A stretch of DNA of 64,000 bases from Bacillota bacterium (GTDB lineage: Bacteria > Bacillota > JAAYKD01): positions 544,001-608,000 of the forward strand of contig OY762825.2 of assembly GCA_963666425.2 (NCBI GenBank), read 5' to 3'. Below are positions 15,457 to 19,921 of this stretch, piece by piece. The translations under genes and the position numbers were made by a program. Position 1 is the stretch's first letter; each line of letters opens with the position of its first letter. The notes below the pieces were generated by a model, which was not told the origin of the DNA, made no database searches, and was given only the letters and a program-made list of their open reading frames with translations.

Positions 15457-15766
15457 CGCGCTTCACCATCCTTTCCTTAATCAATGCAATTGCTTCGGGA
15501 ATATGCTGCTCCGCACCGGAGACGATCTGACGTCTTGTTTCCTGGTTTTCCAGACTGATCGACTGTAATTTCTCTTCTACGAGAGTCTTACGTTCAGATA
15601 ACAAATGCTCTGCTTCGCTGCGCGCTTGCTCAATGGTTTTTTCCAACTTGAGTGCTGATTCTGTTTTGGCGTGATAGATCAGTTCTTCAGCCTCTGTTTT
15701 GGCTTTTTCCACCGTGGTTGCTGCTTCCTGCTCGGCATTTTTCACCTGACGGAGTATTTCTTTCAT
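15443..15766 (-). CDS. A/V-type ATPase stator subunit G/H
   Basis: 107-aa charged coiled coil, first gene of the operon, GAGGT RBS. Confidence 0.82.
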
Positions 15767-15918
15767 AGATACCTCACCACCTTTCCTGCTCCATTTGAAG
15801 TATTAAAGAAAATGAAATTCAGGATCCTCCTCGAGGATCGGTTACACAAAAAATTCGACAAAGCCAGTCAGACTAATAAAAACGATACAATTATACCGAT
15901 AATTCGATATCGATTCAT

Positions 15919-15960
15919 AAAAAAAGATGGACTGAAGAAGCAGCACCCCTCCCGTCCATC
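15919..15960 (-). terminator. Intrinsic terminator in the ATPase leader region
   Basis: Minus strand GATGGAC-GGGAGG...CTTCTTC-A-GTCCATC followed by T7. Confidence 0.75.
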
Positions 15961-16064
15961 CTGAATTGGCTGAGTTGTTAGGATCGCTCCATGCACTCAA
16001 AAACTGACCGCCTTTGCTGTGAGAAAAAGAATTATGATGTCGTGATAAAAATAAGAGACAAGAT

Positions 16065-16094
16065 ATAATACCTTGACGCAAGAGACTTTGTCAA
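16065..16094 (-). promoter_or_regulatory. Putative promoter upstream of the ATPase leader
   Basis: Minus strand TTGACA-18 bp-TATTAT, overlapped by the inverted repeat CTTGAC-N12-GTCAAG. Confidence 0.55.
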
Positions 16095-16189
16095 GTTCTA
16101 TTATTTGATATTTTGAGTGTTCTACCCGAATTTGCAAGATTCTTTCAATTGCCGTTTTTGGGGCGCAGCAATGGGGCGGCGGAGTGGCG

Positions 16190-16958
16190 GAGACGGGGTA
16201 CGCGGAAGGGTTCTGTGGGATAGCAGTTGCATTTTCAGCACTAAGCGATGGAATAATGATTGCATAGCGCATAACGATGGAATGGCGCCAGAACATCCAT
16301 CACATTTTCAGCGCCATGCGATGGAATAATGATTGCATAACGCAAAACAATGAAGCTACACCAGGACGGGGCACGCGGAACGGTCAAGACCGTTCCCTAC
16401 CTTGCGAGTTGGTTGAAGTAACACCGCAATGTAATGAAGCTACGCCGGGAACGCAGGGACGCCGGGACGGGGCACGCGGAACGGTCAAGACCGTTCCCTA
16501 CCTTGCGAGTTGGTTGAAGTAACACCACAAAACAATGAAGCTACGCCAAAACGGGTTACGCGGAACGGTCAAGACCGTTCCCTACCTTGCGAGTTGGTTG
16601 AAGTAACATCGCAATGTTGCGTGTAGGTTGAAGTAACACCGCAATACAATGAAGCTACGCCGGGACGGGGCACGCGGAACGGTCAAGACCGTTCCCTACC
16701 TTGCGAGTTGGTTGAAGTAATACCGCAATGTAATGAAGCTACGCCGGGGCATCCACCACATTTTCAGCACCAAGCGATGGAATAATGATTGCATAACGCA
16801 ATTGCAGGTTGGAGCAATGGAATAATGATTGCATAGCACGAAATAGGTTGGAGCAAATGTAGGGAACGGTCTTGACCGTTCCGCACGGTTCAATTAACAC
16901 CGCAGAACGATAGAGTTACGCCAGGACGGGGCACGCGGAACGGTCAAGACCGTTCCCT
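16190..16958. repeat. REP/BIME-like array 2, left part (six REPs, the last one interrupted by IS110)
   Basis: GCGGAACGGTCAAGACCGTTCCCTAC-CTTGCGAGTTGGTTGAAGTAA units near 16374, 16475, 16559, 16674 and 16934, plus an inverted copy at 16859; linkers shared with array 1. Confidence 0.85.
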
Positions 16959-17059
16959 CGTATATACTAGTAGTGCCAAGGTAACTCATTTACAGGGTAC
17001 AGGAAGCGAGCCAAAGCCACTCTTTAAGTATCCAAGGGGTTTGCCCTTTGTGGTATAAT

Positions 17060-17205
17060 TTTGTCAGGCAGAGGTCAACGTACTGTTCCCTGGGAATCGT
17101 TCCTGTGATGTAGAGTGTTGCCTCTGATCTGACAGAAATCTGCGTATTGGCTGGATAGGGTAAAATCCTTGTATTTCACGCGAGGTTGCAGCTGTCAGCG
17201 TCAGA
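17060..17205 (+). ncRNA. Putative IS110 bridge RNA (target-binding and donor-binding loops); boundaries approximate
   Basis: Stems TGTCAG/CTGACA and CAGAGG(T)CAAC/GTTGCCTCTG enclose ACTGTTCCCT (17082-91), a GGGAA/TTCCT hairpin and ATGTAG (17108-13). A second loop has TGGCT (17148-52) and GCGAG (17180-84), matching the circle junction TGG-CT-CGT. Confidence 0.75.
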
Positions 17206-17248
17206 GAGATCATCCTTTGCCGCATTCCAGTTTGAGGAGTTGCTGTAA

Positions 17249-18421
17249 ATGATTACTTTTGGCGTAGACATCGGTAAATTCCGTCACCAGGCGATCGCGG
17301 TGGACGCCAGTGGTCAAGCGCTGGCTCCCTCGTTTGCATTTGAAAATTCCGAAGAGGGCTTTCAATTGTTTTTGCAGAAGGTCGCTTTTTACCAAAAGCA
17401 AGATGCAATTTGCGTCGGCATGGAAGCCACCGGTCATTACTGGCTGAATTTTTATTGTGTTTTACTCGATTTAGGAATTGAATTGCATGTGGTCAATCCC
17501 CTGCTCACCGACGCCATACGGCGCATGTCTGTCCGTAAAACCAAGACGGATACGGTGGATTGCGGTTATATCGCGGATGTGATCCGCATGGGACGTTATT
17601 CCGACGTAGCGGTACAAACGGAGGATGTCCAGAATTTACGCGAGTTATGCCGTTTCCGCTGTTCTCTGGTTGATGAGATTGCAAAGCACAAAAACCATGT
17701 AATTGGCGTGCTGGATCACCTTTTTCCGGAATATCACAAGCTGTTTTCAGATATTTTCGGTAAAACTTCGCTGGAGTTGCTCAGCAAGTATCCGTCACCG
17801 GATGCCATTCTGAAGCTCGGTACAAAGCGGTTGGCTGATTTTTTAGCGAAGCATTCCCGCGGCAGTTTCGGTGAGGAAAAAGCGCTCGAGATCCGCAGCG
17901 CCTGCAGACACACTGTTGGTGTGAATAGAGCGAACGCTGCTCTATGCTTTGAATTACACCAAACCGTGGATCTGATTCAATTCATTGAAGAACAGATTGA
18001 CGCAATTGAGAATAAGATTGAGCAGATCTATTCCCAATGTGAATGCTATCTGGATACCATTATTGGTGTTGGAGTCACCTCGGCTGCGGTGATCTACTCG
18101 GAAATCGGCAATATTGATAATTTCGAAAATCCAAAGAAATTGGCGGCATTTGCCGGTATTGACCCTTCGATTAAGCAATCCGGTAATTTCACTTCAACGC
18201 ACAACACGATGTCGAAGCGAGGCTCACCTTATCTGCGCAGAGCGCTCTGGAATGCCGCAACGGTTGCCGCGCAAAAAGATCCGGTCATGTCTGCTTTTTA
18301 CCAGAAGAAACGCGACGAAGGAAAAGATTATATGACGGCAATTGGAGCTGTTACACATAAATTATGCAACATTGTTTTCGCTGTTTTAAGGGATAAAAAG
18401 CCTTATGTTCCCAGAATATAA
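17249..18421 (+). CDS. IS110-family DEDD recombinase/transposase
   Basis: GVDIGK, MEATG, KTKTDTVD RuvC-like DEDD residues; C-terminal AFAGIDPSIKQSG and KRGSPYLRRAL. Confidence 0.96.
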   Translation: MITFGVDIGKFRHQAIAVDASGQALAPSFAFENSEEGFQLFLQKVAFYQKQDAICVGMEATGHYWLNFYCVLLDLGIELHVVNPLLTDAIRRMSVRKTKTDTVDCGYIADVIRMGRYSDVAVQTEDVQNLRELCRFRCSLVDEIAKHKNHVIGVLDHLFPEYHKLFSDIFGKTSLELLSKYPSPDAILKLGTKRLADFLAKHSRGSFGEEKALEIRSACRHTVGVNRANAALCFELHQTVDLIQFIEEQIDAIENKIEQIYSQCECYLDTIIGVGVTSAAVIYSEIGNIDNFENPKKLAAFAGIDPSIKQSGNFTSTHNTMSKRGSPYLRRALWNAATVAAQKDPVMSAFYQKKRDEGKDYMTAIGAVTHKLCNIVFAVLRDKKPYVPRI

Positions 18422-18456
18422 TTTTCGTTTTGCCACTTGACGTTTGATAGCTGGCT

Positions 18457-18535
18457 ACCTTGCGAGTTGGTTGAAGTAACACCGCAATATTGCGAGTTGG
18501 TTGAAGTAACGCCGTAAAACGATGAAGCTACGCCT
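18457..18535. repeat. Array 2, right remnant beyond the IS110
   Basis: TTGCGAGTTGGTTGAAGTAAC twice, then GATGAAGCTACGCC, the same linkers as 16400-16750. Confidence 0.8.
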
Positions 18536-18541
18536 TATCCC

Positions 18542-19921
18542 TTACGCGACGATACTTCTCACCCAGCTGTCGGTTCTCAGCATGATAAAACCGATGACCG
18601 ATTTGATACCGTCGGCCATGTTCACGATCAGGTAAACAGTCACAATCGGCAGTAAGGTATAGCGTGAAAGAAAAAAGGCCAAAGGGACGCTGACGATACA
18701 GGTGAAAACACTGTCAAAGAAAAAGGTGATGATCGTTTTGCCGCCGGAGCGCAGTGTAAAGTAAACACTGTGGTTAAAGGCGTGCAGCGGGAAGGCCATG
18801 GCCGACACAATCAGGAAGCTGGATGCCATTTGGCGAACCGCAGCTTCTGTATTATAAATCAGCGGAATATAGGAAGAAAACAGGGCTAATAGACAACCCA
18901 GCACCACGGAAGTGCCGACATTGAGGAAAATCAATTTATGATCGGTATCTTTGGCTTTAGCGAAATCACCAGCTCCCAACTGCTGCCCGACCAAAACGCC
19001 AACCGCATTGCCCATCGCCATAAAAAAGATGGCAAATAGTTGAGAAATCGTGGATGAAATATTCAGCGCGGCTACCACTGTGATACCGCGGAAGGCATAG
19101 TTGGCGGTGAGTGAGGCAGTCGCGATCGACCAGACAAATTCGTTGAGCAGTAAGGGAGAACCTTTGATGGCAATGCCTTTGAGGATTTTCGCCGGGATGT
19201 AGGCACTTTGGAAGGCTTTACGCACAAAGTAGAAATTGTCTCGCTGCAGCCAGGTTGCCCCAACAATGAAACCTGCTTCTACCAAACGGGATATTACGGT
19301 GGCTATGGCGGCTCCCTCTACGCCCAAACGCGGGAAACCGAAGCTGCCAAAAATGAGCAGGTAGTTGCCGACCAAGTTGGTCAAAACAGCCAGGATGCTG
19401 CCGGTCATGGCAATGACGGTGTTGCCGCTTTCACGTAAGGTGGAAGAAAAACATTGCGAAATCACAAATGGCACGATACCCCAAAGCATGATCTTGAGAT
19501 ATTGCCTGGCTAACGTCATGGTTAACGCCAGATCCGCCGCGTCCCCCGCTGTCTCATTCAGGAAGAGATGAATCAATTGCGTGTCCCAAATATTGAAGAC
19601 CAAAATCGCCGCAAAACAAATGGCAATACCAAAGAGAATTTTGTAGCGGAATGTGTGCATGACGCCTTCGTAATCCTTGCGGCCAAAGAATTGAGCCGAG
19701 AAAATAGAGGCGCCGGAAAGTCCACCGAAAATTGTAACATTTAAGACGAAGAAAAATTGACTGCAGATTGCCACGGCAGAAATCGCTTCTGTGCCGAGCC
19801 GACCCACCATGACATTATCCAGTAAATTGACAATACTGGTGATTCCTTGCTGAATGATCATGGGAACGACCAGCAGCAGGACCATCTTATAAAAGGCTTT
19901 ATTACCGATAAATTTTTTCAT
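18542..19921 (-). CDS. MATE family efflux transporter
   Basis: NLLDNVMVGRLG, PRLGVEGAAIATVISR; about 12 TM segments. Confidence 0.93.
   Translation of the reverse strand: MKKFIGNKAFYKMVLLLVVPMIIQQGITSIVNLLDNVMVGRLGTEAISAVAICSQFFFVLNVTIFGGLSGASIFSAQFFGRKDYEGVMHTFRYKILFGIAICFAAILVFNIWDTQLIHLFLNETAGDAADLALTMTLARQYLKIMLWGIVPFVISQCFSSTLRESGNTVIAMTGSILAVLTNLVGNYLLIFGSFGFPRLGVEGAAIATVISRLVEAGFIVGATWLQRDNFYFVRKAFQSAYIPAKILKGIAIKGSPLLLNEFVWSIATASLTANYAFRGITVVAALNISSTISQLFAIFFMAMGNAVGVLVGQQLGAGDFAKAKDTDHKLIFLNVGTSVVLGCLLALFSSYIPLIYNTEAAVRQMASSFLIVSAMAFPLHAFNHSVYFTLRSGGKTIITFFFDSVFTCIVSVPLAFFLSRYTLLPIVTVYLIVNMADGIKSVIGFIMLRTDSWVRSIVA

Follow-up and report, generated by a model that had tools for sequence, protein, structure and literature searches.

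The elements of the IS1111 subgroup and the seekRNA elements share with the IS110 subgroup a recombinase family and an RNA-guided logic, but their guide RNA is encoded in the right end, downstream of the gene. Here we describe an insertion sequence (IS) of the IS110 family that occupies positions 16959-18456 (+ strand, 1498 bp) of a window of 64,000 nucleotides (the whole stretch of DNA analysed, positions 544,001 to 608,000 of contig OY762825.2 in assembly GCA_963666425.2) and whose RNA precedes the gene, the arrangement of the IS110 subgroup. We conclude that it is very probably a recently active insertion sequence that selects its target by a bridge RNA.

According to PMC11208160 and PMC11208158, the bridge RNA of IS621 (Escherichia coli) carries a left target guide (LTG) of 9 nt, which has the same sense as the left target and core, along with a right target guide (RTG) of 4 nt, which can be extended and is complementary to the core plus the right target; a left and a right donor guide (LDG and RDG) play the same roles for the joined element ends. 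The wild-type target of IS621 is given as ATCAGGCCTAC (PMC11208160). ISPpu10 of Pseudomonas putida is described as inserting only into one family of repetitive extragenic palindromic (REP) sequences, with clustered REPs; the target encodes a stem-loop, one arm of which serves as the left target, and this stem-loop is an additional specificity determinant (10.64898/2026.03.19.712850). CazIS110-1 of Caloranaerobacter azorensis, an anaerobic Gram-positive host, is reported to be active in vivo and in vitro, to have 10 genomic copies and a two-loop bridge RNA of ~170 nt, and to give a dominant target-loop-only RNA in small-RNA sequencing (10.1101/2025.10.25.684509). Targeting of REPs, cores of the sequence CT and bridge RNAs with two loops are already in the literature (PMC11208160; 10.64898/2026.03.19.712850).

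As far as IS621 is described in the two papers above, our element has in common with it a recombinase with DEDD RuvC-like and Tnp domains, a left-end RNA with target and donor loops, an LTG that is 9 nt long and reads in the sense of left target and core, an RTG of 4 nt that is complementary to the core and two further bases, a CT core within an N7-CT-AC target, REPs as insertion sites, a promoter (in our element a candidate) divided between the ends that become joined (PMC11208160) and, 5' of the RDG core, a G opposite T12. It differs in that its protein is distant (~1e-20 over two stretches, 390 aa versus a 328-aa chain), in its 290-bp left end with a leader of ~100 nt and a conserved internal extended -10 box, in an extra outer helix (helix 3) around the donor loop and in the REP family that it enters. 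The left donor is one base shorter than in the known systems. A guide:DNA pair outside the Watson-Crick rules is tolerated in both, rG:dT in IS621 and, as we infer, rU:dG here. ISPpu10 resembles the element in that all its insertions lie in one family of clustered REPs and its left target is one arm of a palindrome; host group, REP sequence and guides are different, and the tests of a structural 'second match' concern ISPpu10 (10.64898/2026.03.19.712850). CazIS110-1 shares the family, the number of copies and, by description, the two-loop RNA, which in our element is predicted from the DNA sequence. The differences from known bridge-recombinase elements are of degree, and the mechanism, described in 2024, is not new.

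Insertion site, copies and empty targets

At the window locus, the left junction reads GACCGTTCC-CT (CT at 16957-16958; more widely, GGAACGGTCAAGACCGTTCC-CT followed by CGTATATACTAG), and the element starts at 16959 with CGTATATAC. The right junction reads TAGCTGG-CT (CT at 18455-18456; more widely, TTGATAGCTGG-CT), and the flank ACCTTGCGAG begins at 18457. We counted the CT at 18455-18456 with the element, which ends at 18456; 16957-18454 is an equivalent definition. The initial annotation had claimed that removal of the element restores a neighbouring repeat with CT at both junctions, and this holds: excision of 16959-18456 in silico gives the 21-mer GACCGTTCCCTACCTTGCGAG, which stands intact four times in the same array (at 16388, 16489, 16573 and 16687) versus 0 in 100 shuffles. 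The two element ends, CGTATATAC and TAGCTGG, are unrelated, that is, there are no terminal inverted repeats.

The assembly searched for further copies (3.2 Mb, 18 contigs) contains 10 full-length copies with 99-100% identity. Each is exactly 1498 bp long, there are 27 variable columns, and the open reading frame (ORF) is intact in all ten, with 0-4 amino-acid differences. CT stands on both sides of every copy and the junctions are base-precise in all of them. All 10 copies lie in the 3' arm of the REP palindrome, where GGAAC(G/A)GTCAAGAC(C/T)GTTCC-CT precedes the element and AC follows it. The left flank is GACCGTTCCCT in eight copies and GACTGTTCCCT in two; the right flank is CT-AC in every case, starting with ACAT in 7/10 and with ACCT in 3/10. 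Mapping of the copies found none at a non-REP site, and with 10/10 at GAC(C/T)GTTCC-CT before AC, the earlier proposal that the element targets a different REP family at the position equivalent to that of IS621, between CT and AC, is borne out. Unoccupied sites are abundant: the 11-bp sequence C[CT]GTTCCCTAC occurs 121 times in the genome (110 with C, 11 with T) versus ~3 expected by chance, and the palindrome arm precedes 118 of these 121 empty targets. The REP palindrome pattern has 260 two-strand matches, and because it is self-complementary we read these as ~130 REP units.

Among 30 relatives searched, a high-identity element was present only in a genome of the same genus (G001); the sole other match, in G028, was in three pieces (29-39 bp long, 87-93% identical). 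The single copy in G001 is 97% identical, has an identical target loop and lies between ...GACCGTTCCCT and ACATTT, the same type of site as in the host, at a locus other than that of the window. The G001 locus orthologous to the MATE-transporter gene of the window (89% identical) has a REP array with eight empty targets and without the element, and this empty orthologous array therefore gives comparative support for an insertion in the window. REP-plus-target sites number 53 in G001 and none in two genomes of another genus of the same family; among the genomes searched, the REP family is restricted to one genus. We searched a plasmid collection by blastn in distant mode and found no match to the element.

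Several observations concern the surroundings. The region 16100-18540 of the window is a long array of composite repeats, each consisting of the REP palindrome, ACCTTGCGAGTTGGTTGAAGTAACACCGCAA... and AATGAAGCTACGCC..., and fills the interval from a small V-ATPase-like ORF to the MATE gene. Outside the window, one 81-bp left-end remnant at C1:1593457-1593539 is 86% identical to element positions 5-85, follows the variant REP GGAATGGTCAAGACCATTCC head-to-head with a full copy, and looks like an old, truncated insertion. As to the host, the statement that it belongs to the Bacillota could not be established. Neither Spo0A_C nor LpxC was found in the host genome (98.5% complete); such an affiliation is weakly hinted at by the relatives of the element, most of them Bacillota-labelled, and by a pyridoxal-phosphate enzyme whose nearest Atlas cluster is commonest in Bacillota.

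Recombinase and left-end RNA

By its sequence, the 390-aa protein is an IS110 recombinase with predicted DEDD and Transposase_20 domains. It matches PF01548 (DEDD_Tnp_IS110) at 2.5e-40 over the full profile length, PF02371 (Transposase_20) at 8.2e-26 and the NCBIfam model NF033542 'IS110 family RNA-guided transposase' with 262.1 bits versus a cut-off of 140. Among solved structures, it matches ISCro4 (9t56) at 5e-21 and IS621 (8wt6) at 1e-20. The catalytic residues of IS621 are listed as D11, E60, D102, D105 and S241 (PMC11208158), and D7, E59, D101, D104 and S311 of our protein align with these motifs: GVDIG stands against GIDVS of ISCro4 (D7), MEATG against IEATG (E59), KTDTVD (D101, D104) is identical in IS621, and KQSGN in the serine region is opposite YESGS of IS621, where the mapping of S311 to S241 assumes two extra N-terminal residues in the deposited IS621 chain. 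Together with the 10 intact ORFs and the RNA covariation described below, the domain and NCBIfam matches bear out the initial annotation of an intact bridge-recombinase element.

We then compared the left end with those of relatives, 80 loci that encode proteins at 40-64% identity, mostly in Bacillota-labelled genomes and metagenome-assembled genomes (MAGs). The 180 nt upstream of the gene were aligned for the window and 73 non-identical loci (74 in total). RNAalifold recovered the target-loop stem and its hairpin as well as an outer stem, an inner stem and a hairpin of the donor loop, with compensatory changes in 20/23 pairs. In helices 1 and 2 (the target arm), 94-98% of the cells are paired and 11 of 13 pairs have compensatory changes. 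When the AGAGG/CCUCU helix is added, the five helices comprise 28 pairs, 23 of which change on both sides, and 94.7% of the cells are paired versus 78.1% after shuffling (0/500 shuffles reach the observed value); if the partners are slid by 1-3 columns, the paired cells drop to 35-50%. The minimum free energy (MFE) fold of the window sequence also contains the target-loop stem, with z = -2.64 for 17060-17200. The loops of the target arm are variable across the orthologues and those of the donor arm are conserved, which is the pattern expected if targets differ while the ends are shared. A stem-enclosed loop with guides on both sides of a short hairpin had been noticed before, and we find it with slightly shifted positions: ACTGTTCCCT at 17082-17091 and ATGTAG at 17108-17113, separated by the hairpin GGAA-UCG-UUCC (17093-17103). 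The folding and covariation analysis confirms this arm and adds the donor-binding loop, so that the RNA has two loops. Rfam 15 on 15500-19500 (E up to 1) gave two sub-threshold matches of miRNA models on the REP palindrome and no bridge-RNA family.

Two folds of this RNA compete, because CUGAC(AG) at 17129-17135 has two possible partners, the 5' strand of the target stem and CUGUCAG (17192-17198). In the former case GUCAG (17063-17067) closes the target-loop arm, and in the latter CUGUCAG closes the donor-loop arm, which is the covariation-supported helix 3; the two are mutually exclusive and may relate to separate target-loop-only and full-length RNAs. We also observed that the 5' strand GGCAGAGG (17070-17077) is complementary to CCUUUGCC (17213-17220), ~30 nt before the start codon. 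Orthologues carry GCGGATAG or ACAGATA in place of GGCAGAGG, with apparent co-change of the partner as judged by eye; the pairing may serve as a closing helix or provide a connection to translation.

Two candidate promoters can be read from the sequence. A -10-like hexamer lies upstream of the target-loop stem in 64/73 orthologues, in 59 of these 64 with TG two bases upstream. A TTGAC/TTAAC box is found in the right end of all 34 loci with a right-end motif; on joining of the ends its spacing to the TATA box of the left end is 17 nt in 32/34 and 16 nt in two, and these two, the window and L012, are the loci with the shorter TAGCTGGCT end. A generic promoter scan called neither candidate: the internal one was missed because no -35 matches, and the junction promoter because it is split across the element ends. 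The sequencing data were assembled contigs (24 runs, all contigs; four examined). RNA-library contigs (X9) cover only 16935-17145 and 17177-17443 and, being contigs, were not taken as transcription. A circle joint of 18456 to 16959 was not seen in the contigs of four runs, and contigs prove nothing in this respect. A 1600-nt X6 contig that leads from 18459 back to 16934 with 44 other letters between was rejected as a circle junction; it is a path through neighbouring REP units. One X6 contig runs from 16958 into ACCTTGC..., an unoccupied REP unit that is not necessarily at the window locus.

Table 1. Positions in the window of the element's gene, RNA arms, guides, candidate promoter parts and target.
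Feature	Position	Strand	Details
REP palindrome GGAACGGTC-AA-GACCGTTCC	16937-16956	+	3' arm is the source of the left target
Left target + core CCGTTCC-CT	16950-16958	+	C(C/T)GTTCC-CT left of all 10 copies
-10 half of candidate junction promoter (TATATA or TATACT)	16961-16968	+	complete only when right end joins left end
Candidate internal extended -10 box TGGTATAAT	17051-17059	+	just upstream of RNA stem
Target-binding loop arm	17063-17133	+	stem 17063-17079 with 17117-17133, hairpin 17093-17103; MFE fold and covariation
LTG CUGUUCCCU	17083-17091	+	same sense as left target + core
RTG	17108-17115	+	AU extension 17108-17109, GUAG 17110-17113 (reverse complement of CT-AC), handshake AG 17114-17115; layout as described in PMC11208158
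Donor-binding loop arm	17140-17191	+	stem CUGC (17140-17143) with GCAG (17188-17191); homology-supported helices 3-5
LDG UGGCUGG	17148-17154	+	then AU; against TAGCTGG 18448-18454, one G:T wobble
RDG G-CGAG	17180-17184	+	CGAG 17181-17184, then GU; against CT-CG, preceding G opposite T
Ribosome-binding site GAGGAG	17234-17239	+	9 nt upstream of ATG, read from sequence
Recombinase gene, 390 aa	17249-18421	+	DEDD RuvC-like domain residues 5-160; Transposase_20 residues 268-352
-35 half of candidate junction promoter TTGACG	18437-18442	+	in right end
Left donor TAGCTGG + core CT	18448-18456	+	right end of the element
Right target ACCT	18457-18460	+	RTG pairs first two bases

Guide pairing and rival explanations

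In the host genome, LTG base 17084 is U in nine copies and C in one (C1:706185). Because the LTG pairs with the bottom strand, a U in the LTG where the target has C makes an rU:dG wobble: U17084 pairs in the Watson-Crick manner with the T variant of the REP and wobbles with the commoner C variant, and the copy with C at LTG position 2 is located in a C-type site. The complete AUGUAG of the RTG matches 7/10 copies, those with CT-ACAT.

The orthologues allowed guides to be compared with the flanks of their own loci. In these comparisons the best of two registers was taken, in the controls likewise. For the LTG, 44/74 loci had a recognisable start of the left end (CGTAT...), and 30/74 were dropped for want of an end motif or of sufficient flank. 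The LTG matched its own left flank at a mean of 7.41 of 9 positions (n = 44), compared to 5.84 in 1844 cross pairs, and 0/5000 permutations attained the observed mean; at least 8 of 9 positions matched in 23/44 loci versus 7.9% of cross pairs, and the match was perfect in 8/44. For the RTG, 32/74 loci had both a right-end motif and a flank of 5 nt or more (42/74, lacking either, were dropped), and the guide matched the first two right-target bases in 24 of the 32 compared to 14.5% of 984 cross pairs (0/5000 permutations). The LDG follows the right end in a similar manner: the variable base of the LDG equals the right-end base in 31/32 loci (T/T in 24, C/C in 7, which is 7/7, and A/T in 1). Insertion of ten copies at one site together with this guide-flank covariation bears out the LTG/RTG layout proposed in the initial annotation. 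In the donor loop, the handshake G17185 can pair with the target C at position 7. The right end is TAGCNGG-T-CT in 30/32 orthologues, and only the window and its closest relative, L012, have TAGCTGG-CT without the T; the T missing from these two ends is the base with which the handshake A of the target loop would pair.

By analogy with the biochemistry of IS621 and CazIS110-1, the 290-bp left end would be transcribed into a two-loop RNA of ~140-190 nt, starting from the internal extended -10 promoter or, after excision as a circular intermediate, from the promoter of the joined ends (TTGACG from the right, TATATA from the left). The DEDD and Ser recombinase would bind this bridge RNA; its donor-binding loop would pair with the joined ends (the LDG with TAGCTGG, the RDG with CT-CG-T) and its target-binding loop with a REP unit, and cleavage and strand exchange by the protein at the CT core would result in insertion in one orientation with CT left on both sides.

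A number of details weigh against this reading. At the window copy the LTG requires a wobble, and the right flank CT-ACCT is complementary to GUAG only, with the AU extension of the RTG mismatched. In the donor loop, the LDG is followed by AU, which puts an A opposite the core C; in the target loop, the handshake A17114 cannot pair with donor position 7 (G18454). Both points also set the element apart from IS621. A search for an uninterrupted pairing between the distal RDG, GUAUUUCAC, and the left end gave ambiguous results, none convincing; a search for a handshake match in the target loop likewise gave none that convinced. In the MFE fold of the single sequence the target loop is recovered and the donor loop supported by homology is absent; for the left end as a whole, the advantage over shuffles is marginal (z = -1.77). 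The guide-flank tests involved a choice of register and the dropping of loci. Finally, the assembled contigs examined yielded no direct evidence of the RNA or of a circle junction.

Could the element instead be a fossil, an IS110 descendant that no longer moves and whose ten copies were spread by duplication or recombination among REP arrays? Eight of the 10 copies do form four same-orientation pairs, 200-773 bp apart with 1-5 REP palindromes between (706185-709490, 92799-96316, 1590169-1593364 and 1537838-1541606 on contig C1 of the host genome, G000), but in 706185/707993 and in 92799/94819 the two neighbours fall into different sequence subgroups and therefore represent separate insertions in adjacent REP units. 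Duplication is suggested by C1:1537838 and C1:1540109, which are identical at all 27 variable columns and have near-identical immediate flanks, but the identity of flank plus gap between the two units is only 74% (ungapped comparison). The fossil reading is also consistent with the lack of a circle junction in the contigs examined, yet it has to accommodate intact ORFs and base-precise junctions in all ten copies and a copy at another locus in the sister species, and we regard it as improbable. A different objection is that the protein or the REP hairpin alone chooses the target and that the complementarity of the left-end loops to the flanks is incidental. The 3' arm of a palindrome does serve as the left target, and in ISPpu10 the target stem-loop is described as adding specificity (10.64898/2026.03.19.712850), but a contribution of the hairpin would supplement RNA guidance and not substitute for it. 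Moreover, the guides co-vary with the flanks across orthologues whose targets are quite different and mostly non-palindromic, and the loops vary, whereas compensatory changes preserve the stems. This explanation appears still more improbable than a fossil, and selection of the target by the bridge RNA of a recently active element remains our preferred reading.

Guides of the sister clade and meaning of the element

We asked where the sister elements insert. In these (left flanks of L013-L083), the LTG usually ends with CCUCCU, which resembles the anti-Shine-Dalgarno sequence. Of the 39 loci whose left flank extends over 200 nt or more, 28 have an opposite strand that begins with an AGGAGG-like sequence, and in 22/39 there is a start codon at a distance of 8-19 nt, followed by an open frame of 60 codons or more. 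These flanks and open frames therefore place most sister elements immediately upstream of host Shine-Dalgarno sequences, and the clade, as judged from sequence, seems to be aimed at gene starts. We found nothing in the literature on IS110 insertion at Shine-Dalgarno sequences or ribosome-binding sites, which supplementary target catalogues could cover. Two loci, L065 and L073 (MAGs labelled Pelotomaculum and Syntrophomonadaceae), have an LTG and RTG similar to those of the window (CGUUCCCCU and GUAG) and sit after the hairpin-like GGGAACGTAATACGTTTCCCT, with the target GGGAACGT...ACGTTTCCCT; the clade has in these a further, second REP-like target.

One possible history, which we put forward tentatively and hold to be somewhat doubtful, is a natural reprogramming of the guides: the lineage may have switched from the Shine-Dalgarno-type LTG of a mostly Bacillota-labelled clade to a REP hairpin, with an LTG that is U/C polymorphic where the REP is T/C, and resident copies may supply bridge RNA constitutively from the internal promoter and not only from the circle-junction promoter. 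That the bridge RNA can be reprogrammed, as was proposed at the outset, is suggested by the natural variation of the guides, one single-nucleotide polymorphism in the LTG among 10 copies and divergent guides in the orthologues.

The element leaves the known mechanism unchanged. It is an annotated natural bridge recombinase distant from IS621, with ends, core, four guides, promoter candidates and ~130 natural target sites, and since ends, guides and targets are mapped, it would lend itself to a trial as a further orthologue in programmable recombination. The insertion of the sister clade next to Shine-Dalgarno sequences is what may be of interest to specialists. In biological terms, the element shows that REP targeting via the palindrome's 3' arm also occurs outside the enterobacteria and pseudomonads, and within this genome a guide polymorphism and a wobble pair would together cover both variants of the repeat.

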